Assembly (NCBI GenBank): GCA_050260055.1 | Contig: JBLNBO010000022.1 | Span: 131,207 to 195,206 of the forward strand | Reading direction: 5' to 3' | From: Ignavibacteriales bacterium | Lineage (GTDB): Bacteria > Bacillota > Clostridia > Acetivibrionales > UBA4821 | Length of the DNA: 64,000 nucleotides | In this document: positions 16,155-49,749 of the stretch, piece by piece | Layout: each line of letters opens with the position of its first letter | Position numbering within the stretch: the first letter of the stretch is position 1 | Notes under the pieces: generated by a model | The model's input: the letters and a program-made list of their open reading frames with translations, nothing else | Database searches by the model: none | What the model was told of the DNA's origin: nothing | Program-made: the position numbers and the translations under genes

Positions 16155-16231
16155 TGGTGGGTGATAATGGGCTCGAACCATCGACCCCCACGATGTCAAC
16201 GTGGTACTCTAACCAGCTGAGCTAATCACCC
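16155..16231 (-). tRNA. tRNA-Val (anticodon GAC), CCA encoded
   Basis: The reverse complement folds by hand into a cloverleaf: acceptor GGGTGAT/ATCACCC, anticodon stem CCACG/CGTGG with loop TTGACAT, T-arm GATGG-TTCGAGC-CCATT. Confidence 0.9.
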
Positions 16232-22094: not shown

Positions 22095-22168
22095 TGGAGC
22101 GGGTGATGGGAATCGAACCCACGCAATTAGCTTGGAAGGCTAATGTTCTACCATTGAACTACACCCGC
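22095..22168 (-). tRNA. tRNA-Gly (anticodon UCC), CCA encoded
   Basis: Reverse complement GCGGGTGTAGTTCAATGGTAGAACATTAGCCTTCCAAGCTAATTGCGTGGGTTCGATTCCCATCACCCGCTCCA. Acceptor GCGGGTG/CACCCGC, anticodon loop CTTCCAA. Confidence 0.9.
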
Positions 22169-27593: not shown

Positions 27594-28868
27594 ATGGTCG
27601 TAGAACAAAAAAATGTTGTCAAGGGAGAATTGTATGTTCCTGGTGACAAATCAATTTCTCACAGGGCAATAATGGTTGGAGCTCTTGCAGAAGGCATATC
27701 TGAGATTGATGGATTTTTACTGAATGAGGATTGCTTAGCTACAATTGAATGCTTCCGAAAAATGCAGGTAGGAATCGAAATTCTTCCTAAAAACCGTGTT
27801 AAGGTTTATGGAAGAGGAATAAATGGGCTAAAACCATACTTGCATCCTTTAGATACCGGAAACTCAGGAACAACAATACGATTGATGCTGGGAATTATGG
27901 CCGGGCAGAAGTTCAATTCAGTATTAACTGGAGATGATAGAGCTCACAAGAGACCAATGGGTAAAGTAGTTAAGCATCTTAGAACTATGGGAGCGAATAT
28001 TATAGGTAAGGAAGATGGAAATTATGTTCCATTTCTAATTAACACCAGTCATCTTACAGGAGCGACATTTGACTTCCCCAATTCAGGAACCCAAGTTAAG
28101 TCTACCCTATTATTTGCAAGTCTTTTTGCAGAAGGTGAAACAGTAATCAATGAAAGAATAAAATCTAGAGACCATACTGAGAGAATGCTGAATGTATTCG
28201 GAGCAAATATCAAAGTTGATGGAAATACCGTCAGAAGCAATGCAGTTCCAGAGTTGTTTGCACAGAAAGTATATATACCTGGAGATGTATCTTGTGCAAT
28301 TTATTTCTTAGCTGCAGGTCTTTTGATTCCTAACTCAGAAATATTAGTCAGAGATGTTGGAATAAATGAAACCCGAATGGCAATCTTTGATGTGTTGAAA
28401 AGAATGGGTGCAAACATTGAGATTTCTAATATAAGAACAATAGATAACGCGACTATTGGTGATATTTGTGCAAAATATTCTGATTTGCAGGGTGTTACAG
28501 TAGAGCCGGATGATGTAGCAAGGATGATAGATGAAGTACCAATAATGGCGCTGATAGCTGCCAAGGCAAATGGTACTACAGTATTAAAAGAAGCGCCAGA
28601 GATTATGCAAAAAGAAACCAACAGGATAAAGGCAGTATCGCTTGAACTTTCAAAGATGGGTGCTAAGATCACTGAAACACCAGAAGGAATAATAATTGAA
28701 GGCGGAAAGAACCTTAAAGGAACAGTAGTTGAAAGTTATAATGATGAAAGAATAGCAATGGCTCTTGCAATAGCTGGTTTAACGTCCGAAGGAGAAACAA
28801 TGATTAGAAGGCCGCAGTGCGTTGACGTTGCTTTCCCTGAGTTTTTTGACATACTATATAGATTATAG
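27594..28868 (+). CDS. aroA: 3-phosphoshikimate 1-carboxyvinyltransferase (EPSP synthase)
   Basis: VPGDKSISHRA, GNSGTTIRL, and a length of 424 aa. Confidence 0.95.
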   Translation: MVVEQKNVVKGELYVPGDKSISHRAIMVGALAEGISEIDGFLLNEDCLATIECFRKMQVGIEILPKNRVKVYGRGINGLKPYLHPLDTGNSGTTIRLMLGIMAGQKFNSVLTGDDRAHKRPMGKVVKHLRTMGANIIGKEDGNYVPFLINTSHLTGATFDFPNSGTQVKSTLLFASLFAEGETVINERIKSRDHTERMLNVFGANIKVDGNTVRSNAVPELFAQKVYIPGDVSCAIYFLAAGLLIPNSEILVRDVGINETRMAIFDVLKRMGANIEISNIRTIDNATIGDICAKYSDLQGVTVEPDDVARMIDEVPIMALIAAKANGTTVLKEAPEIMQKETNRIKAVSLELSKMGAKITETPEGIIIEGGKNLKGTVVESYNDERIAMALAIAGLTSEGETMIRRPQCVDVAFPEFFDILYRL

Positions 28869-28895
28869 AAGAAGCTGAAAGGCTTCTTTTTTTTG
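28869..28895 (+). terminator. Rho-independent terminator
   Basis: GAAGC-TGAAAG-GCTTC followed by T8. Confidence 0.65.
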
Positions 28896-29268
28896 GGTAT
28901 TTCCATATACAAGATGTACGAATCTGAGGTAAGTTTTATCAATCCGGTTTATGGAGATTAACCCAGATTTATATGGATTGATAAATAGTAATTAAGCTAA
29001 TATAATCATGTTTGGTGTTAAGCCCTATATCCAAAACTTATTTGCATGCCAGGATGGGATTTGGAAAAAAATAATTAAAATTTCCGGACTTCCCTGTTAT
29101 AAATATTTAACTTGGGGTATAATGGCTATGGAGTTTTATTAAATATTCATTAAATTATGAATAAGTTTTATATAATCAGCATAAAAGGTCTTGTCTGATA
29201 TTTATTGTATGAATTATTTTATTGGTTTTAAATTTCTAAATTATTAATCAAAGTAAGGGAGGTATACT

Positions 29269-29766
29269 ATGTGTAATTGTGGATGCTGCTGCGACAGTGA
29301 AAATGACGTTGAAGTAAAAAAGATAGGCAAAATTAAGGAAGTTATAAACAAATATAAAGATACCAAGGGTGCATTGATTCCTATTCTTCATGAGGTACAG
29401 GAGATTTATGGCTATCTACCTTTAAAGGTCCAAAAAATCATTTCTGAAGAATTGAATGTTCCATTGGCTGAAATTTATGGAGTAGTAACCTTTTATTCAA
29501 ACTTTATAACTAGCCCTAAAGGGCAATATAAAATTCAAGTATGTCTAGGTACTGCATGTTATGTTAAGGGTTCAGGAAAGATAATTGAAAAGGTTAGCGA
29601 AGTACTAGGAATTGATGTAGGAAAAAGCACTAAAGACGGCAAGTTTTCTCTTGATGCTGTTAGATGCATAGGTGCTTGTGGTCTTGCTCCTGTAATGATG
29701 ATAAATGATGATGTTTACGGTCAGCTTACAACCGACAAGATAGAAGGAATACTGAAAAAGTACTAA
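29269..29766 (+). CDS. hydC: NuoE-like [2Fe-2S] subunit of a multimeric [FeFe]-hydrogenase (HydC/HndA type)
   Basis: Thioredoxin-like 2Fe-2S pattern (CLGTACYVKG ... CIGACGLAPV). Unusual MCNCGCCC N-terminus. First gene of the hydCBA cluster. Confidence 0.85.
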   Translation: MCNCGCCCDSENDVEVKKIGKIKEVINKYKDTKGALIPILHEVQEIYGYLPLKVQKIISEELNVPLAEIYGVVTFYSNFITSPKGQYKIQVCLGTACYVKGSGKIIEKVSEVLGIDVGKSTKDGKFSLDAVRCIGACGLAPVMMINDDVYGQLTTDKIEGILKKY

Positions 29767-29990
29767 TACCAGAATTCATAGGACAGAATAAAACGATTTT
29801 AACTATCAACTGGCTCTCTAACTGAATATTAGAAGCCATTATCCATGCTACTAGCCACTTGATTTCAAAGAAATCTTAGTGATAGTGTATATCCTTAAAG
29901 GATTGGACTTAGCGCCGCTTAACATCTATGAATGACTGGAAGGAATAGCGGTGGTAGTCGTCGGAGCTAACTTACAATGGGGGTGTTTAA

Positions 29991-31856
29991 ATGAAAACAA
30001 TCCAGGAATTAAATAAAATCAGGGAAGAAACCCTGAAAAAGATAAAAGCAGGTGGCGAAAACAAGACAACCAGAATCGTGGTAGGTATGGCGACCTGTGG
30101 TATTGCTGCCGGAGCGAAACCTGTTCTTGAAGCCTTCGAAAATGAAGTAAAGAGCAGAGGAATGAATAACGTTGAAATTAAGCAGAGCGGATGTATAGGT
30201 GTATGCAGACTCGAGCCAATCGTTGAGATTTACGAGCCGGGCAAAGAAAAGGTAACCTATGTAAAGATGACGCCGGAGAAGGCAAGAAAGGTTATTGAAG
30301 ACCACCTTGTCAGAGGTACAATTTGTAATGATTGTACAGTTGGTGGTAAGGAAGCAGAAAATATTGAAGAGCTTAAATCAATAAATGATGCTTATTACTT
30401 TAAGAAGCAGTTGAGAATTGCATTGAAGAACTGCGGAATCATAGACCCTGAAAATATAGATGAATATCTGGCGATGGATGGATACAAAGCAATCGAAAAG
30501 GTATTGAATGAATATACGCCTGCTGAAGTTATTGATATAGTTAAAAGATCTGGTCTCAGAGGCCGTGGAGGAGCAGGTTTCCCGACAGGTATGAAATGGG
30601 ATTTTGCTTTTAAGGCTCAAGGAGATCAGAAGTATGTATGCTGTAATGCAGACGAAGGAGACCCAGGTGCCTTTATGGACAGAAGTGTTCTTGAAGGTGA
30701 TCCTCATGCAGTTATTGAGGCTATGGCTATTGCAGGATATGCAATTGGCTCCAACCAGGGGTATATTTATGTGAGAGCAGAGTATCCTATAGCTGTAAAG
30801 AGATTGGGAATTGCTATAAAACAAGCCAAGGAATATGGGCTTCTTGGAAAAAATATTTTAGGAAAGAATTTTGATTTTGACCTTGAACTCAGACTTGGAG
30901 CCGGAGCATTTGTCTGCGGTGAAGAAACAGCTTTGATGACATCCATTGAGGGAAAAAGAGGAGAGCCAAGGCCAAGACCGCCTTTCCCGGCAAACAAAGG
31001 ATTATGGCAAAAGCCAACAATACTGAATAACGTTGAAACTTATGCAAATGTTGCTCAGATAATATTAAAGGGGCCTGAGTGGTTTTCTAGTATCGGAACT
31101 GAAAAGAGTAAGGGAACCAAGGTTTTTGCAGTAGGAGGAAAAATCAATAACACAGGCCTGGTTGAAGTTCCTATGGGTACAACATTAAGGGAAATTCTTT
31201 ATGATATAGGTGGAGGAATTCCAGAAGGCAAGAAATTTAAAGCTGCCCAGACAGGAGGACCTTCAGGTGGATGTATACCTTCTGAATGTCTTGATATTCC
31301 AATAGATTATGAGACCCTGATTCAAATTGGTTCAATGATGGGTTCAGGGGCATTAATTGTAATGGATGAAGACAACTGTATGGTTGATATAGCAAAATTC
31401 TTCTTAGGATTTACGGTTGATGAATCCTGCGGTAAGTGCCCTCCGTGCAGAATCGGTACAAAAAGGATGTGGGAAATCCTTGATAAGATAACATCAGGGA
31501 ATGGTGAAGAAGGAGATATTGAGAAACTTGAAAACCTTGCAAAGAGCATAAAGATATCTGCGTTTTGTGGATTGGGGCAGACTGCACCAAACCCAATCCT
31601 CAGCACTATTAGGTACTTTAGAGATGAGTATGAAGCTCATATCAAGGAGAAGAGATGCCCCGCCGGTGTATGTAAAGCGCTTCTTGGTTACAAGGTTGGT
31701 GTTGATAAATGCAAAAGCTGCGGAATATGTGCAAAGAACTGCCCTGTAAGTGCAATATCAGGTGAAAAGGGCAAGCCATATGAAATTGACCCTGCAAAAT
31801 GTATTAAATGCGGTGCATGCGAAACAAAATGCCCGTTTAAGGCGATAAGTAAGTAG
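29991..31856 (+). CDS. hydB: NuoF-like flavoprotein subunit (HydB/HndC type): N-terminal 2Fe-2S domain, FMN/NADH site, C-terminal 2x[4Fe-4S]
   Basis: GLRGRGGAGFPTG, CNADEGDPGAF, ESCGKCPPCR, C-terminal CKSCGICAKNCP and CIKCGACETKCP. Confidence 0.9.
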   Translation: MKTIQELNKIREETLKKIKAGGENKTTRIVVGMATCGIAAGAKPVLEAFENEVKSRGMNNVEIKQSGCIGVCRLEPIVEIYEPGKEKVTYVKMTPEKARKVIEDHLVRGTICNDCTVGGKEAENIEELKSINDAYYFKKQLRIALKNCGIIDPENIDEYLAMDGYKAIEKVLNEYTPAEVIDIVKRSGLRGRGGAGFPTGMKWDFAFKAQGDQKYVCCNADEGDPGAFMDRSVLEGDPHAVIEAMAIAGYAIGSNQGYIYVRAEYPIAVKRLGIAIKQAKEYGLLGKNILGKNFDFDLELRLGAGAFVCGEETALMTSIEGKRGEPRPRPPFPANKGLWQKPTILNNVETYANVAQIILKGPEWFSSIGTEKSKGTKVFAVGGKINNTGLVEVPMGTTLREILYDIGGGIPEGKKFKAAQTGGPSGGCIPSECLDIPIDYETLIQIGSMMGSGALIVMDEDNCMVDIAKFFLGFTVDESCGKCPPCRIGTKRMWEILDKITSGNGEEGDIEKLENLAKSIKISAFCGLGQTAPNPILSTIRYFRDEYEAHIKEKRCPAGVCKALLGYKVGVDKCKSCGICAKNCPVSAISGEKGKPYEIDPAKCIKCGACETKCPFKAISK

Positions 31857-31889: not shown

Positions 31890-32052
31890 GGATAAATAAT
31901 GAATAAAAAGGAACGTCAGAAGCGAGCAGTACAAGGCGCACAAGGCGAAAAGCACGGAGCATATATCTAATATGTGAGTACTTTGAAACGAAGTGCAACG
32001 CAGTAATGCGATGGTTATCACGTTCCGTAACCTATAGAAAGGTGTGAAAGAT

Positions 32053-33804
32053 ATGGAAGATATGGTGAATATAATAATAGATGGTCAAAGTATGCAGGTG
32101 CCGAAAACATATTCGGTTCTTGATGCAGCTAGGGAAGCCAATATTGATATACCAACCTTGTGTTATCTGAAAGGCGTTAACGAAATAGGCGCATGTAGAA
32201 TGTGCGTAGTAGAAATAAAAGGAGCGAGAGGGCTTCAGGCGGCTTGTGTTTATCCTGTATCTGAAGGCCTTGAGATTAAGACAAATACTCCAGCCGTTAG
32301 AGAATCAAGGAAAGTAACTCTTGAGCTTATTCTTTCAAATCATGATAGACAATGCTTAACATGCGTTAGAAATAGAAATTGCGAACTTCAGAAACTATCT
32401 GATCAGTTGAATATTCAAGAGATAAGATATGAAGGCGGTATGAAAAAACGCCCTCTTGATAATTTTTCACCGTCAATAGTTAGAGACCCGAATAAATGTA
32501 TTTTATGCCGTAGGTGTGTAAACGTATGTAAAAATGTTCAAACAGTAGGAGTTATTGATACTGTTGAAAGAGGATTCGACACAATAGTATCGCCTGCTTT
32601 TGAAAAACATATGGATGAAGTTCCATGTGTAATGTGCGGGCAATGTATTGTTGCATGTCCGGTTGGAGCTTTAAGGGAAAAAGATGATACCCAAAAGGTA
32701 TGGGATGCATTAGCAAATTCTGATTTGCATGTTGTTGTCCAAACAGCTCCAGCGGTTAGGGTAGCATTAGGAGAAGAATTCGAAATGCCGGTTGGAACAA
32801 GTGTAACTGGCAAAATGGTTGCTGGACTTAAAAGACTTGGTTTTGCCAAGGTGTTTGATACTGATACAGCGGCAGACCTTACAATAATGGAAGAAGGAAC
32901 AGAACTGATTCAAAGGATAACAGAAGGAGGAAAGCTTCCGCTAATTACTTCATGCAGCCCTGGCTGGATAAAATTTGCCGAGCATAATTATCCTGATTTA
33001 TTAGAAAATCTTTCAACCTGTAAGTCGCCGCATGAGATGTTTGGTGCTTTGCTTAAATCATATTATGCACAGAAAGCTGGCGTTGACCCAGCCAAGGTAT
33101 TTGTAGTTTCTATTATGCCTTGTACTGCTAAAAAATTCGAAGCAAGAAGGCCAGAGCTTTCAGCAACAGGCTTTAAAGATGTCGATGTTGTGCTTACAAC
33201 TAGAGAGCTTGCAAGAATGCTAAAAGAATCAGGAATTGATTTGAAGACACTTTCGGATGAGAAGTTTGATGATCCTATGGGAGAAGCAACTGGTGCAGCA
33301 GTAATCTTTGGAGCAACTGGCGGTGTTATGGAAGCAGCGCTGAGAACGGTTGCAGAGATTCTTACCGGAAAGCCTTCTGAAAATATAGAATATGAAGCGG
33401 TTAGAGGTACGGAAGGAGTCAAAGAAGCTGAAATACAAATTGGTGATTTAAAATTGAAGGCAGCTGTTGCTCATGGACTTGGCAATGCAAGAAAGCTAAT
33501 GGACAAAATACGAAATGGTGAAGGGAACTATCATTTTATTGAGGTAATGGCTTGCCCAGGTGGATGCGTAACGGGAGGCGGTCAGCCGATTCGTTCATCC
33601 AAAGACCTTGCAAAGATGAATCTTAAAGAAGAAAGGGCAAAAGCAATTTATGCAGAGGATAAAAGTCTTCCTTTAAGAAAATCTCATGAGAATCCTGCGG
33701 TTAAGAAGCTGTATGAGGAATTCTTGGGTGAACCCGGAGGCCATAAGGCCCATGAACTTCTGCATACACATTATCAGGGAAGAGAAAACTATCCAGAAGA
33801 ATAA
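32053..33804 (+). CDS. hydA: [FeFe]-hydrogenase catalytic subunit (M3-type: 2Fe-2S, His-ligated 4Fe-4S, 2x 4Fe-4S, H-domain)
   Basis: H-cluster motifs ITSCSPGW (variant of TSCCPxW), MPCTAKKFE, EVMACPGGCVTGGGQP. N-terminal ferredoxin-like cysteine motifs. Start at ATG 32053 or 32062; the ORF track GTG at 32044 lies inside the RBS. Confidence 0.9.
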   Translation: MEDMVNIIIDGQSMQVPKTYSVLDAAREANIDIPTLCYLKGVNEIGACRMCVVEIKGARGLQAACVYPVSEGLEIKTNTPAVRESRKVTLELILSNHDRQCLTCVRNRNCELQKLSDQLNIQEIRYEGGMKKRPLDNFSPSIVRDPNKCILCRRCVNVCKNVQTVGVIDTVERGFDTIVSPAFEKHMDEVPCVMCGQCIVACPVGALREKDDTQKVWDALANSDLHVVVQTAPAVRVALGEEFEMPVGTSVTGKMVAGLKRLGFAKVFDTDTAADLTIMEEGTELIQRITEGGKLPLITSCSPGWIKFAEHNYPDLLENLSTCKSPHEMFGALLKSYYAQKAGVDPAKVFVVSIMPCTAKKFEARRPELSATGFKDVDVVLTTRELARMLKESGIDLKTLSDEKFDDPMGEATGAAVIFGATGGVMEAALRTVAEILTGKPSENIEYEAVRGTEGVKEAEIQIGDLKLKAAVAHGLGNARKLMDKIRNGEGNYHFIEVMACPGGCVTGGGQPIRSSKDLAKMNLKEERAKAIYAEDKSLPLRKSHENPAVKKLYEEFLGEPGGHKAHELLHTHYQGRENYPEE

Positions 33805-33815
33805 ATTATTCATTT

Positions 33816-33846
33816 AAGCCCCTCTCTTAAAGAGAGGGGCTTTTTG
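33816..33846 (+). terminator. Rho-independent terminator of the hyd operon
   Basis: AAGCCCCTCTCT-TAA-AGAGAGGGGCTTTTTGT. Confidence 0.85.
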
Positions 33847-34000: not shown

Positions 34001-35635
34001 ATGGCTGGCGGAAGAAATAATACTAAGCTATTAGAAGAATATGACAGCCCATTTAATGGGTCATTTGACGACCAATTTGATGGCCCAACAGATAGATCAA
34101 CAAGAAAAAAGAGCAAATCTAAGGATACAAAGCCTAGTCCTAAAGAAAATTTGATGAAACTTAAGGGCTTAGAGGATAATCGTGAATCACTAATAAATTT
34201 TTGCAGCAAACTAGCAAATGCGGATATAGAAGCAATGATTAAAATTGACCAAGGAATTATTGAGATTTTACGGATAGGCCTTGGAGAAAAATTTAATAAA
34301 TTTGAAAATAATCCTAAACTGGCAGAATACTTTGAGAAAAGACAAGAAACCCAGCAAGAATTTAATCAAGAAACTGGAACGGTTCAGGAAGAGGTATCAA
34401 CAGCAGGGATAATTGATGCTGAATTTGAAGATATTAAGCATCCTGAGCCTGTTACTGAAGAGAATAATAATAGAGCTGATTTTGAGCAGAATGAAAAAAC
34501 TCAAACCCAGAATGCGGATATAGAAGCTGCAGCAACAGCAGAGCCTGAGGTGTCCGAAACAGAAAAACAAATAAACTTTGATGAAGAGCATAATAAGAAA
34601 CAAGCAGAATATGATATTTGGTGGAATGAAAGCCTGCATGAGTTGGAAAATATCGCTGACCCAAGCGGTCTTGGTGCATATGGGGTAGAAGAAGGACTAA
34701 ACGACCCGGAAATTGAAGAACTCAGGAAAGAATCATGGGGGAAAATTACAAGAGATTATCAAGGTATGCCTTCAAGATATGCATACCTTGATAAAAATGA
34801 TGTTATTAAACCTAATCAAGCGCCGGACAAATCTCAAGACGTGGGTATTAACCCGGATGAGCCGATAAATGACCAAGCTAAAAAAGGCAAGAAAAAATCC
34901 AGCTTCAAAGATATGCTGAATAATGGCAAAAAGAAATTAAAAGAATACATTAAAAATTCGAAAATTTTTGCTTTCCTAGATAAAGAGGATGAATCAGAAC
35001 TTGATGTTCAAGCTATGCTAAGAAGCCGTGCCATATATTTAAAAGCGCAAAAAAAAGAAAGAGAGCTTAAGCAACAACAAAATCAAAAAACTCAGCCCCA
35101 AAAAGGTTTTATCCATAGAAAATATAGGGATGTTAAAGGATATCTTAAGCAAAAACAATTGAGCCACAAATTCGATAGATTTGTGGAAGAACAAGAGGGT
35201 AAAGAAGTTAAACCTGAACTCTCTATGGGGTTTGCTGGCATTAGTTCTGCTGCAATATATAAAATCGGGGAGACAAAAGATGGGCAAAATGAATACATGC
35301 TTATAAAAGGGAATCTAAAAAAGCCTCAGAATATACAACACTTTAATTTTGTTGGAAATATTGATGACTTAAAAAATTCTGATAGGGGGATTGAGGCGCT
35401 AAACTTAAAGAAATTCTTTACATTTATTACATATCCTATGGTTAAAGAAGCATTAAACAATAATAAAACACCAGACGGAAAATTTGATTTTGGGAAAGTA
35501 ACTGTAGATAGCATGAACAATCCGGTTTTAGGAAATCAGAAAGTGAATAAAGAGATAGCAGCTAATTTTAAGCATTTAAAGCTGGATCAGGCTGTCAAAC
35601 AAAATTCACAAGGCAAAAGTGATTTTGGACGCTAA
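34001..35635 (+). CDS. Hypothetical 544-aa protein, K/E/N/Q-rich, no recognised domain
   Basis: Long ORF with its own promoter-like element, RBS (GGCAGGGAAATAAAATG) and terminator. No TM segment and no motif I recognise. Confidence 0.6.
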   Translation: MAGGRNNTKLLEEYDSPFNGSFDDQFDGPTDRSTRKKSKSKDTKPSPKENLMKLKGLEDNRESLINFCSKLANADIEAMIKIDQGIIEILRIGLGEKFNKFENNPKLAEYFEKRQETQQEFNQETGTVQEEVSTAGIIDAEFEDIKHPEPVTEENNNRADFEQNEKTQTQNADIEAAATAEPEVSETEKQINFDEEHNKKQAEYDIWWNESLHELENIADPSGLGAYGVEEGLNDPEIEELRKESWGKITRDYQGMPSRYAYLDKNDVIKPNQAPDKSQDVGINPDEPINDQAKKGKKKSSFKDMLNNGKKKLKEYIKNSKIFAFLDKEDESELDVQAMLRSRAIYLKAQKKERELKQQQNQKTQPQKGFIHRKYRDVKGYLKQKQLSHKFDRFVEEQEGKEVKPELSMGFAGISSAAIYKIGETKDGQNEYMLIKGNLKKPQNIQHFNFVGNIDDLKNSDRGIEALNLKKFFTFITYPMVKEALNNNKTPDGKFDFGKVTVDSMNNPVLGNQKVNKEIAANFKHLKLDQAVKQNSQGKSDFGR

Positions 35636-37056: not shown

Positions 37057-38241
37057 ATGCCTAACATTACAGTATTCAGAGTATCTTCTCAAAAGAGCTT
37101 AAAAAAGCCGCTGTTTTATTTGCTTCTTTGGTTCGTAATATCAATGATGTTTATTTTGATATATATTACATTCTTTTTTGATTCTGTTAAGTATTTAGAA
37201 TCTGAAAGCATTAGATTTGTAAGAGCAGCTAATCTAAAAACATTGGAAAGCGTAATTTTCTATTCTATACCTGTTTGTAATACTGGCTCTTTAAATGGCA
37301 AAGAGCCGAATAAAAGTGCGAACACATTATATCTAGGAATTTTTGACTTTAAGAAAATACTGCAGGGGAAATATCCTGTGTTATCTGGCTATGTTCCAAA
37401 TTCTATAAGAGATAAAGCAAATAATCAAAATAGTAATTTTAATGAAAATTCTAATGAAAAGAATCAAGTTGATGAAAATGAAAATAAAAATTCAAAAATT
37501 TACTCAAAGACAACTTTGGTAAAAGCAGGGGGAATTTTAATTAGAAATCATACGAAATATAAAATCGATATAAATAAAATGCTTTCTGAACCTCTTAAGT
37601 TTAAAACTTCGCAAAAAGGTACGAGTGCGATTATACTGCATACGCATACTACTGAAGCATATATGTCAAACAGTAAGAACGCTGCAAATGGGTATAGAAC
37701 AAATTCTCCGGATGAAAATGTTACAAGGGTTGGACTTGAGCTTAAAAAGCAGCTAAATGCGAATAAGATTAAAGCATTTCAAGATACTACGGTACATGAT
37801 TATCCGGAATATCTTGGTGCTTATTCAAGGGCTTTTAAAACCATTTTAAAAAACTTGGGAAAATATCCTGAAGCAAAACTTGTACTTGATATCCATAGAG
37901 ATGCATATGGAGAAACTGAAGGCAGCCTCAGAACTGCAGTCAAGATAAATGGTTCTGATACAGCAAAGATAATGTTTGTTATAGGGACAGATGAATTGGG
38001 GTTGGAGCATAAGGAATGGAGAGAAAATCTTAAATTAGCTGTCAAGCTTCAAGATAAGGCCAACAAATTATATCCTGGACTGTGCCGGGAGATTGATTTG
38101 CGCAAGGAGAGATTTAACCAGCATTCGGCACGCGGAGCTATAATAGTTGAAGTCGGAGGAACAGGAAACAATATAATTGAAGCAGAGAGAAGTATGAAAT
38201 ATCTTGCCAGAATAATATCTGATACATTTAAAACAAAATAG
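37057..38241 (+). CDS. spoIIP: Stage II sporulation protein P
   Basis: N-terminal TM segment, ILHTHTTEAY motif and a C-terminal amidase-like region typical of SpoIIP. Confidence 0.8.
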   Translation: MPNITVFRVSSQKSLKKPLFYLLLWFVISMMFILIYITFFFDSVKYLESESIRFVRAANLKTLESVIFYSIPVCNTGSLNGKEPNKSANTLYLGIFDFKKILQGKYPVLSGYVPNSIRDKANNQNSNFNENSNEKNQVDENENKNSKIYSKTTLVKAGGILIRNHTKYKIDINKMLSEPLKFKTSQKGTSAIILHTHTTEAYMSNSKNAANGYRTNSPDENVTRVGLELKKQLNANKIKAFQDTTVHDYPEYLGAYSRAFKTILKNLGKYPEAKLVLDIHRDAYGETEGSLRTAVKINGSDTAKIMFVIGTDELGLEHKEWRENLKLAVKLQDKANKLYPGLCREIDLRKERFNQHSARGAIIVEVGGTGNNIIEAERSMKYLARIISDTFKTK

Positions 38242-48378: not shown

Positions 48379-49311
48379 TTAAAACATGTTCCTTTTCTGA
48401 AGGAATATTATTGATATTACACATAACACAAGAGAAATTCCTAATATAATGTTAAATGCATATGGCATATGTGCAAGCGGGTTTGTCACATTCATCCCAA
48501 AGAAGCTAGATACCATAGTAGGTATAGCAATAATTATTGTGATAGATGCAAGGAATTTCATTACTATATTAACGTTATTAGAAATTATTGATGCAAAAGC
48601 ATCCATAGTACCGCTTAGTATACTACTATAAATGTTGGCCATTTCTATGGCCTGCTTATTTTCAATGATAACATCTTCAAGAAGCTCGGTATCATCAGGA
48701 TATTTTTTTACGTAGTCTAATTTCAGCATTTTTTCCAGAACAATTTCATTAGCTTTAAGAGAAGTAGAAAAATAAACAAGACTTTTTTCCAGCTTCATTA
48801 ATTGCAATAATTCTTTATTTCTCATTGACTCGTGAAGCTCATGCTCAATCCTGCTGGAAATCTTATCAATATGTCTAAGATATATAAGATACAGGGTTGC
48901 GTTTCTATACAAAATCTGAAATAAAAATCTACTTTTATAAGAAGTATAAAAGTTTTTCACCCTGCTGTTCTTAAAGTCTTTAATAACTGGATTCTCTTTT
49001 AAGCATATGGTTACTATACTTTCATTGGTATAGATTATACCTAAAGGGATTGTATAATAAACATTTGTATTCTCTTCTTTTTCAATTACTGGCGTATCGA
49101 CAAGGATTATTGTTTGACCATTTTCATACTCGATTCTGGAACGCTCTTCTTCATCCAATGGAGCATGTAAATATTCAATTTCAATCTTCAATCCTTCGCT
49201 AACTGTTTTTATTTCTTCTGGAGTAGGATCAATTAGGTTTACCCAAACCCCATCTTCGAAATGGTCAAGTTCTTGGAGCTGGTCTTTTACTGTCTTGAAA
49301 ATCTCGAGCAT
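48379..49311 (-). CDS. corA: CorA-family magnesium transporter
   Basis: Two C-terminal TM segments with FFGMNV (GMN motif). ATG at 49311 after a GAAGGTG RBS. Preceded by an M-box. Confidence 0.9.
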   Translation of the reverse strand: MLEIFKTVKDQLQELDHFEDGVWVNLIDPTPEEIKTVSEGLKIEIEYLHAPLDEEERSRIEYENGQTIILVDTPVIEKEENTNVYYTIPLGIIYTNESIVTICLKENPVIKDFKNSRVKNFYTSYKSRFLFQILYRNATLYLIYLRHIDKISSRIEHELHESMRNKELLQLMKLEKSLVYFSTSLKANEIVLEKMLKLDYVKKYPDDTELLEDVIIENKQAIEMANIYSSILSGTMDAFASIISNNVNIVMKFLASITIIIAIPTMVSSFFGMNVTNPLAHMPYAFNIILGISLVLCVISIIFLQKRNMF

Positions 49312-49350
49312 TTTTACACCTTCTTTCCTGTTTCTTAGGCGCAAAAAAGG

Positions 49351-49559: not shown

Positions 49560-49577
49560 TAAACAAAACAAATATTT

Positions 49578-49733
49578 TATCCTCGCTCGTTTAGCTTTAG
49601 CACTATACAACTTTGGATTTCATCCAGCTGCGTTAAGTAAAACCTTATTCCGATAGTACTTGTTCACCCTTTGGCATCTCTCGATGTTCCAGGGTAGCAG
49701 CATTTATCTGTATAGTAACCTCACCTAACAAAG
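49578..49733 (-). promoter_or_regulatory. M-box (ykoK-leader) Mg2+ riboswitch
   Basis: The minus strand contains GTTAGGTGAGG, GCTGCTACCCTGGAACATCGAGAGATGCCAAAGGGTGAAC, TAAGG and CTAAAGCTAAACGAGCGAGG, matching conserved M-box blocks. It is upstream of corA. Confidence 0.85.
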
Positions 49734-49749
49734 ATATTTGTATCATACT

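Follow-up and report, generated by a model that had tools for sequence, protein, structure and literature searches.

The textbook P1 motif of [FeFe]-hydrogenases is TSCCPxW, in which the second cysteine is the fourth ligand of the [4Fe-4S] subcluster of the H-cluster. The HydA studied here reads TSCSPGW and has Ser305 at that position. Can such a protein be a working hydrogenase, and if so, what holds its cluster? We addressed this in a stretch of 64,000 nucleotides, called the window below, and in related sequences and structures. An earlier note on this DNA had named three options: an H-cluster with a natural Ser ligand in an enzyme whose gene stands with those of NuoE/NuoF-like subunits, a functionally altered or sensory variant, or a sequencing error. 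The first is supported by the precedent of Ser301 in the A. woodii enzyme (PMC10021017). We consider it probable (roughly 0.8) that the HydABC encoded in the window is a working electron-bifurcating enzyme of the A. woodii type, linked to NAD, whose H-cluster naturally has Ser as a ligand.

The P1 motif of HydA and its register

The gene begins at a GTG codon, and the database copy begins at the ATG at 32053 (583 aa). The P1 codons ACT TCA TGC AGC CCT GGC TGG lie in frame and give T302 S303 C304 S305 P306 G307 W308 (Table 1). The earlier note had read the motif, its codons and its frame in the same way, and it was right that the AGC codon of the serine is one base away from TGC. The CpI numbering that it gives, C299 and C300, also agrees with the PDB sequences, where the corresponding residues are C299/C300 in CpI, C298/C299 in T. 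kivui and C300/S301 in A. woodii.

Table 1. Features of the hyd region, with positions in the window.
Feature	Position	Strand	Remarks
Terminator-like hairpin closing aroA	28867-28890		before the promoter-like site
Promoter-like TTGATA-17-TATAAT upstream of hydC	28978..29006	+	consensus match only, 11/12 positions
hydC, NuoE-like [2Fe-2S] subunit	29269..29766	+	165 aa; best PDB match A. woodii HydC 7q4v_C
hydB, NuoF-like FMN/NAD subunit	29991..31856	+	621 aa; best PDB match A. woodii HydB 7q4v_B, 901.5 bits
hydA, M3-type [FeFe]-hydrogenase catalytic subunit	32044..33804	+	586 aa from GTG start
P1/L1 H-cluster motif TSCSPGW	32947..32967	+	read in the hydA ORF
Cys304 codon TGC	32953..32955	+	proton-relay Cys = CpI C299
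Ser305 codon AGC	32956..32958	+	[4Fe-4S]H ligand position = CpI C300, T. kivui C299, A. woodii S301, CrHydA1 C115
P2 motif MPCTAKKFE	33115..33141	+	ligand Cys360 (33121-33123) and Lys363
P3 motif EVMACPGGCVTGGGQP	33541..33588	+	ligands Cys504 (33553-33555) and Cys508 (33565-33567, = bridging CpI C503)
Terminator-like hairpin and T-run	33821..33839	+	17 nt past the hydA stop; consensus match only

The register was taken from alignments to CpI, T. kivui and A. woodii HydA and from an alignment of 150 H-domain sequences. Against each of the three, the alignment of the window protein stays gap-free over more than 50 residues both before and after P1, and Ser305 falls directly on CpI C300, as the earlier note had assumed. 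In the 150-sequence alignment this column holds Cys in 111 sequences, Ser in 37 and another residue in 2; the columns on its two sides have Cys in 135/150 and Pro in 137/150.

The remainder of the H-cluster site is conventional. Both other motifs are intact, as had been stated before, with MPCTAKKFE and EVMACPGGCVTGGGQP lying in the hydA ORF; the P2 pattern MPCxxKxxE is matched by the former, and the P3 pattern ExMxCxxGCxxG by EVMACPGGCVTG. The three other ligand cysteines, C360, C504 and C508, align to CpI C355, C499 and C503. The relay and proton-transfer residues of CpI (C299, E279, E282, R286 and S319) are present as C304, E284, E287, R291 and S324, and the alignment also shows M358, K363, E366 and M502 to be kept. 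Upstream of the H-domain, HydA has the F-domain of the M3 type (an N-terminal [2Fe-2S], a His-ligated [4Fe-4S] and 2x[4Fe-4S]). This region can be aligned over its whole length with A. woodii HydA1 and CpI, and His100 and Cys 104, 107, 113, 152, 155, 158, 162, 195, 198, 201 and 205 are invariant.

An annotated database entry (P0001) has the same sequence at 100% identity, and its Pfam domains include PF13510, PF10588, PF12838, PF02906 and PF02256. HydA scores 943.3 bits against NCBIfam NF040763, "NADH-dependent [FeFe] hydrogenase, group A6" (cutoff 765), 569.7 bits against TIGR02512 (cutoff 405.95), and 779.8 bits against its best PDB match, A. woodii HydA1 (7q4v_A). A search of all six frames of the window found no further [FeFe]-hydrogenase motif outside hydA.

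With this arrangement, the [4Fe-4S] subcluster would be held by Cys360, Cys504, Cys508 and the side-chain oxygen of Ser305, the last replacing the fourth Cys, and Cys304 would stay the last proton-relay residue before the diiron site. That a serine can serve as ligand with normal FTIR signatures and activity comes from the literature on the A. woodii homologue, and by analogy the same probably holds for the window HydA.

The hydCBA genes and their probable bifurcating role

The genes of the NuoE-like and NuoF-like subunits mentioned in the earlier note lie directly upstream of hydA, and all three genes are adjacent and co-oriented. HydC matches 7q4v_C with an E value of 1.6e-57 (197.5 bits) and passes the NCBIfam NuoE model TIGR01958 (146.4 bits, cutoff 142.4). 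The alignment of HydB to 7q4v_B spans residues 30-621. HydB has an N-terminal [2Fe-2S] domain (NCBIfam 2Fe-2S ferredoxin matches, 36-114) and a C-terminal FdxA_fam domain (571-618); the latter is a 2x[4Fe-4S] ferredoxin domain in which CxxCxxCxxxCP occurs twice (residues 574 and 604).

Three marks have been proposed for bifurcating beta subunits: Ala/Glu-x-Met near the NADH site, Phe near FMN, and GGPSG in the SLBB domain (PMC7311640). HydB has all three, in GDPGAFMD at residue 223, GAGAFVCGEE at 303 and GGPSG at 422. Its nucleotide loop is ADEGDPG; loop motifs of this kind are described in PMC9431212, where the P1 serine is not discussed. On these sequence criteria, HydB is probably a bifurcating subunit, and the hydC-hydB-hydA operon would encode a heterotrimeric [FeFe]-hydrogenase that performs flavin-based electron bifurcation and is probably coupled to both NAD and ferredoxin.

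In about 70 of 80 related loci the arrangement is the same, with hydA following immediately after a HydB-like gene. The gap between hydC and hydB is only about 225 nt in the window, so no extra gene fits there; it is about 1 kb in many related loci. The terminator-like hairpin after hydA suggests that the three genes may form one unit. Sites like the promoter-like one upstream of hydC are no more frequent in this region than after shuffling of the sequence.

Serine among relatives and the alternative readings

The serine is the norm among relatives. A chance calculation has no meaning for a single codon; what counts is agreement between independent sequences, and the serine is shared by them. 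It occupies the ligand position in 120/120 of the nearest database relatives (74-100% identity), 119 of which carry the full TSCSPGW; these include two entries from JGI and ENA sources that are 93% identical (P0002 and P0003). A set of 80 species-representative genome loci gave Ser in 75 cases, Cys in 2 and no readable residue in 3. A survey of homologs had been proposed in the earlier note, and this is its outcome. All six serine codons (AGC, AGT, TCA, TCT, TCG and TCC), and thus both codon families, occur among the related loci. The families fall into phylogenetic blocks, with 11 changes compared with a mean of 26 in shuffles, and the window hydA sits in an AGY-Ser subclade. A Syntrophus sp. 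locus (L056) has TSCSPGW as well.

Across the family, clustering at 50% identity gave about 126 representatives, and 24 of them (19%) carry Ser. This agrees with the figure of about 20% of [FeFe]-hydrogenase sequences given for the same position in PMC5855289. The 19% is a regex count of P1 motifs, which misses degenerate sequences, and the column of the 150-sequence alignment was read instead. In a neighbor-joining (NJ) tree of these 150 H-domains, the window HydA falls into one clade with A. woodii HydA1 in which every member has Ser, and Ser appears elsewhere in the tree too. The Fitch minimum is 15 Cys/Ser changes, but at 36-60% identity an NJ tree has too little power to prove recurrent origin. 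A scan for compensating residues by column association, uncorrected for phylogeny, gave no clear candidate. It showed a weak preference for Gly at +2, found in 15/17 Ser-state versus 31/92 Cys-state sequences with the same lack of correction.

Ser305 is thus an inherited lineage signature and the norm of its sub-lineage, and the TSCSP motif is already known, both from publications and from a solved active enzyme. The TSCSPGW of the window is ordinary because it is the inherited, published signature of a large lineage that includes such an enzyme. The unusualness implied in the earlier note does not stand: that note would have given way to a well-documented TSCSP signature, and the motif is documented in PMC5855289, in PMC3787301 and in the structure of PMC10021017. 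We expect that Ser305 is selectively maintained and that the enzyme would be normal and active.

How do the alternatives fare against this reading? A miscall of A at 32956 in a true TGC codon would need one substitution, and the exact protein is recorded from one assembly (P0001: 1 member, 1 contig). However, P0002, P0003 and the other 118 closest relatives all have the serine, as do 75 of the 77 readable loci from other species. Together with the codon-family blocks, in which the window falls on the AGY side, and with the same residue in a solved active enzyme, this refutes the sequencing error proposed earlier, to which we assign a negligible probability. It is also very improbable that HydA is a degraded or sensory/regulatory paralogue whose catalysis has been lost or changed, with the altered ligand as the sign of it. 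Sensory [FeFe]-hydrogenase groups do carry changes in the P1 motif, which speaks for such a role, but the residue changed in those enzymes is the relay Cys, and HydA retains it along with all proton-pathway residues and the other cluster ligands. The Pfam domains listed for P0001 include no PAS or signalling domain, and the features of the HydS type (groups C/D), a PAS or comparable signalling domain at the C-terminus and a lost relay Cys and proton pathway, are absent. HydA aligns over its full length to CpI and A. woodii HydA1, so there is no room for a sensory domain. The gene shares its operon with hydC and with a hydB of the bifurcation type and is the sole hydrogenase in the window, and catalysis is retained in A. 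woodii HydABC, which has this motif too. The altered or sensory variant of the earlier note therefore finds no support.

Other readings accept the serine and question its role. Cys304 might ligate the [4Fe-4S] cluster, or the cluster might have three protein ligands, with Ser305 no ligand and the proton relay altered or run by Ser. Such a swap is in line with the poor cluster binding of engineered CrHydA1 C115S (PMC5855289) and with the resolution of the structural evidence, which limits the certainty of the A. woodii Ser-Fe assignment. A map resolution of 3.49 A is quoted for T. kivui HydABC (PMC10021017), and the A. woodii structure is also from cryo-EM; at resolutions of this type, an Fe-O(Ser) bond and a non-bonded Ser beside a three-Cys cluster are not rigorously distinguishable. 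Against the swap, the A. woodii authors modelled Ser301 as a ligand in an enzyme with canonical FTIR and normal activity, and the sequence around the motif aligns without gaps. The Cys at motif position 3 is as conserved in Ser-state as in Cys-state sequences, with TSCSPGW in 119/120 relatives, as would be expected if it still serves as the relay. In studied enzymes, variants that lose this Cys (C169/C299) are much less active, and this too counts against the swap, which we regard as decidedly unlikely.

Somewhat less improbable, though still doubtful, is a non-bifurcating NADH-dependent hydrogenase of the Syntrophomonas wolfei/Syntrophus aciditrophicus type, which would still have a Ser-ligated H-cluster. 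The NCBIfam name of the HydA model and the TSCSPGW of the Syntrophus sp. locus point that way; HydB, in contrast, has all three marks of PMC7311640, keeps its extra Fe-S domains and finds its best PDB match in the bifurcating A. woodii HydB. Finally, there is a modest chance that the serine is not a neutral stand-in but is kept in the A. woodii-type lineage because it adjusts the potential or protonation behaviour of [4Fe-4S]H for bifurcation, either by O-ligation or by leaving a three-Cys cluster to which Ser is not bonded; in the extreme form, Cys304 would be the real fourth ligand. Tuning of this kind would depend on scaffold features absent from CrHydA1. Several observations are compatible with either tuning or a Cys304 ligand: the serine is kept over deep divergence and in both codon families, C115S is inactive, the column scan gave no strong compensating residue, and the structure is from cryo-EM only.

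Known enzymes and the meaning of the motif

The reading of HydA as a naturally Ser-ligated, bifurcating enzyme says little that is new about the window itself, where the motif is the normal state of the lineage and the protein is identical to P0001. It says more about the family. With Ser305 in 120/120 relatives, in 75/77 loci and in A. woodii HydA1, the textbook motif is too narrow as a family definition, and TSCCPxW is too strict as a functional filter, since about one in five [FeFe]-hydrogenase clusters reads TSCSPxW. In 2017, a natural Ser ligand to a [4Fe-4S] cluster was still described as "unknown to date" (PMC5855289); among [FeFe]-hydrogenases it is a common feature.

A contrast is seen with CrHydA1 C115S, where Cys was exchanged for Ser at the ligand position that Ser305 occupies naturally. 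In the engineered variant the [4Fe-4S] site was poorly occupied, [2Fe] was not inserted and activity stayed under the detection limit (PMC5855289), so Ser ligation is not generically tolerated, whereas the natural Ser enzyme of A. woodii is active. The natural scaffold must therefore accommodate Ser in a way that CrHydA1 does not, a mechanistic contrast that is not specific to the window. A near-isogenic natural pair, L032 (Cys) and L045 (Ser), with 84% H-domain identity, is good material on this difference in tolerance.

CpI (PDB 4XDC, 3C8Y and others), the prototypical monomeric M3 enzyme, aligns at residues 2-573 to residues 8-578 of HydA (556 bits). Its proton pathway and other three Cys ligands are identical to those of the window protein, but it has Cys300 in place of Ser305, and it is monomeric and ferredoxin-dependent without HydB/HydC partners, whereas HydA is encoded with both. 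Melainabacteria ACD20 also has TSCSPGW, in gene clusters of trimeric "confurcating" hydrogenases; the two proteins concerned also have Ile for a Cys of motif 3 (PMC3787301), a motif that is intact in HydA. Publications dealing with CpII or with the TSCCCP motif of group B have no bearing on the Ser305 position.

T. kivui HydABC (PDB 8A6T, 8BEW) is of the same complex type and architecture, and its HydA is the second-best PDB match of the window HydA (656.4 bits). It has the canonical TSCCPSW with Cys299 as ligand where the window has Ser305, and the complex is reported to be NADP-dependent, with the loop GDEGDPG in HydB (PMC9431212) rather than ADEGDPG. The closest known system is A. woodii HydABC(D) (PDB 7Q4V, 7Q4W, 8A5E), in which Ser301 replaces the Cys ligand of cluster A1 and which shows the canonical FTIR states Hox, Hred, HoxH and Hhyd together with normal activity (PMC10021017). 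The two differ in that the H-domain of A. woodii HydA1 is only about 60% identical to that of HydA, and in RGGGGFP of A. woodii HydB versus RGGAGFP in the window. They share TSCSPGWIKF with Ser at the ligand position, and they match in M3 architecture, length and partner subunits; A. woodii chains are the best PDB match for all three subunits of the window complex.

A serine at the ligand position of HydA

The codons ACT TCA TGC AGC CCT GGC TGG at 32947-32967 on the + strand lie in frame with hydA and read T302-S303-C304-S305-P306-G307-W308. The earlier note had reported this TSCSPGW motif together with intact other H-cluster motifs and NuoE/NuoF-like neighbours; the sequence, the frame, the two other motifs and the upstream genes are all as it described, so that the observation stands in full. 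No further [FeFe]-hydrogenase motifs occur in any frame of the window.

Features of the window, in order of position
Feature	Position	Strand	Remarks
tRNA gene	16158-16231	-	Rfam, 62.7 bits
tRNA gene	22098-22168	-	Rfam, 77 bits
Terminator-like hairpin closing aroA	28867-28890		consensus match only
Promoter-like site	28978-29006		consensus match only
NuoE-like gene	29269-29766		co-oriented; with the NuoF-like gene directly upstream of hydA
NuoF-like gene	29991-31856		co-oriented, directly upstream of hydA
hydA ORF	32044-33804	+	586 aa from GTG start
MPCTAKKFE motif	33115-33141		same ORF as TSCSPGW
EVMACPGGCVTGGGQP motif	33541-33588		same ORF as TSCSPGW
Terminator-like hairpin 3' of hydA	33821-33839		consensus match only
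544-aa ORF	34001-35635	+	immediately 3' of hydA terminator-like hairpin
SpoIIP gene	37057-38241		Pfam PF07454
CorA-like Mg2+ transporter gene	48379-49344	-	Pfam PF01544
M-box magnesium riboswitch	49575-49739	-	Rfam RF00380, 150.7 bits

A search of all PDB sequences gave full-length alignments of HydA to three structures: 'Iron hydrogenase HydA1' of 7Q4V/7Q4W/8A5E was the top match (779.8 bits), with 8A6T HydA1 at 656.4 bits and CpI, the Clostridium pasteurianum hydrogenase, at about 556 bits. The alignments to 7Q4V, 8A6T and CpI are gap-free for more than 50 residues on each side of the motif, and residue counts in the PDB sequences give C299/C300 in CpI, C298/C299 in 8A6T and C300/S301 in 7Q4V. 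The numbering given in the earlier note (first Cys the relay, second the ligand) holds, and Ser305 of the window aligns with the ligand. We regard it as the decisive point that the best-matching solved structure, 7Q4V, itself reads ITSCSPGWIKF.

Judged from the family alignment, E284, E287, R291, C304, S324, M358, C360, K363, E366, M502, C504 and C508 are conserved in window HydA (CpI E279, E282, R286, C299, S319, M353, C355, K358, E361, M497, C499 and C503, respectively), and the Cys and His ligands of the F-domain are invariant. Gly at +2 from the Ser is found in 15/17 Ser-state vs 31/92 Cys-state sequences, a count that ignores phylogeny; the alignment scan found no other position tracking the Ser state.

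Distribution of the serine variant

When 1.84 billion cluster representatives were searched exhaustively with HMMER, 2627 proteins came up at E up to 1e-30. Among the best 150 of these (36-64% identity), Ser occupies the ligand position in 24 of the ∼126 whose motif could be recognised; this share of 19% is in line with the ∼20% that PMC5855289 credits to Winkler, Esselborn and Happe 2013. An alignment-based reading of the column, which also took in 14 close homologues, the three PDB references and the query, gave Cys in 111, Ser in 37 and other residues in 2. A quick neighbor-joining (NJ) tree has one all-Ser clade, made up of the query, its close relatives, Acetobacterium woodii HydA1 and the database protein P0123; further Ser lineages lie elsewhere in this tree, which is too weak for counting origins. 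Another database entry, P0121, is a predicted protein of 4122 aa with seven [FeFe]-hydrogenase H-domains, six of them in tandem and 99-100% mutually identical, the seventh 69% identical to those six. Its P1 motif reads TSCCA(S/G)W, with Ala for Pro, in all seven. P0121 is probably an artefact of assembly or a tandem gene array that was annotated as a single gene.

Close relatives were drawn from 5.8 billion clustered proteins (NCBI, JGI, ENA, Logan), and the best 120, at 74-100% identity and with Acetivibrio and Pseudobacteroides species among their sources, all carry Ser (TSCSPGW in 119, SSCSPGW in 1). Scanning the GTDB species, each represented by one genome, gave 80 loci at 54-72% identity, mostly from Clostridia and also from Desulfotruncus, Syntrophus, Holdemania and Armatimonadota, with Ser in 75, Cys in 2 and a motif unreadable by the search pattern in 3. 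These counts dispose of the sequencing error that the earlier note had listed as a possibility: Ser305 is a lineage signature, not an error.

The Ser codons in the scan are AGC (19), TCA (18), TCT (11), AGT (10), TCG (10) and TCC (7). AGY and TCN codons are two steps apart, and each is one step from the TGY of Cys. On an NJ tree they form phylogenetic blocks (11 changes, where shuffled labels average 26), with window HydA inside an AGY block. Nested in the same block is one of the Cys loci, L032 (TSCCPAW, TGC), whose H-domain is 84% identical to that of its Ser neighbor L045 (AGT); Cys and Ser have therefore interconverted naturally on nearly the same scaffold. These loci, with P1 at about 5392 in both, are a natural near-isogenic Cys/Ser pair.

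The hydCBA unit and its surroundings

The best PDB matches of HydB (621 aa) and HydC (165 aa) are A. woodii chains (901.5 and 197.5 bits). HydB carries a [2Fe-2S] domain at its N-terminus and a 2x[4Fe-4S] domain at its C-terminus. It fits all three sequence criteria put forward for bifurcating beta subunits by Losey et al. 2020 (PMC7311640): the Ala and Met of GDPGAFMD, the Phe of GAGAFVCGEE, and GGPSG. Its ADEGDPG loop (residue 220) is the form linked with NAD rather than NADP, and PMC9431212 assigns this NAD-type loop to group A3 partners. This loop occurs together with RGGAGFP (residue 192), which is typical of group A4 partners (PMC9431212), whereas A. woodii HydB has RGGGGFP.

The terminator-like and promoter-like consensus matches suggest that hydCBA is a self-contained unit. 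The hydC-hydB gap is 225 nt (29766-29991), and the genes are nearly adjacent in some related loci as well; in many others the hydC-like and hydB-like matches are about 1 kb apart, with room for at least one extra gene (in locus L001, for example, from the end of hydC at 1677 to the start of hydB near 2740). The 544-aa ORF beyond hydA is high in Lys, Glu, Gln and Asn, and Pfam gave no hit for it at E up to 1e-5. Farther on, the M-box riboswitch lies directly upstream of the CorA-like gene, a textbook arrangement.

A database protein identical to window HydA (P0001, 32053-33804) carries the NCBI label 'MAG: Ignavibacteriales bacterium'. The window encodes SpoIIP, its GC content is 34%, and its relatives are all Clostridia/Bacillota; the Ignavibacteriales label probably reflects a mis-binned contig.

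Probable serine ligation and known systems

We read the window HydABC, with a probability of about 0.8, as a functional A. woodii-type electron-bifurcating enzyme in which Cys360, Cys504, Cys508 and Ser305 would ligate the [4Fe-4S] of the H-cluster and Cys304 would be the proton relay. Sequence, register, conservation and operon were established in this analysis. Katsyv et al. 2023 (PMC10021017) described the HydABC of A. woodii (7Q4V/8A5E) and Thermoanaerobacter kivui (8A6T); the Ser of the homologue was modelled as a ligand, with normal FTIR and normal activity, and we infer the same for window HydA.

A non-bifurcating, NADH-only enzyme, to which the name 'NADH-dependent [FeFe] hydrogenase, group A6' given to many of the best 120 relatives could point, is unlikely in view of the sequence features of HydB. 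Somewhat less likely is a three-Cys cluster, or a swap in which Cys304 becomes the fourth ligand. In CrHydA1, where every ligand Cys was replaced in turn (Kertess et al. 2017, PMC5855289), the exchange C115S, at the same position as Ser305, removed most of the [4Fe-4S] cluster and left no measurable activity; the A. woodii model has the Ser itself as ligand. We hold a sensory or degraded variant, set beside the conserved residues of window HydA, to be very improbable, and the chance of a sequencing error to be negligible.

The bridge to the diiron site is canonically made by the second Cys of P3 (CpI C503), which in CrHydA1 is C366 (PMC5855289). PMC10021017 names Cys354Tk/Cys356Aw as the bridging Cys, which by residue count in the PDB sequences is the Cys of P2 (CpI C355). 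This is possibly a slip in the text of PMC10021017, and it leaves the Ser301 assignment unaffected.

Full-text literature searches on the TSCSP variant led only to PMC10021017, PMC5855289 and Di Rienzi et al. 2013 (PMC3787301), with TSCSPGW in two trimeric hydrogenases of one Melainabacterium. The variant is already in the literature, though sparsely. The earlier note would have given up its claim if TSCSP proved to be a well-documented clade signature; by that criterion the finding is explained, and it is already known. The question that reaches beyond this window is why natural scaffolds accept Ser where engineered CrHydA1 does not.
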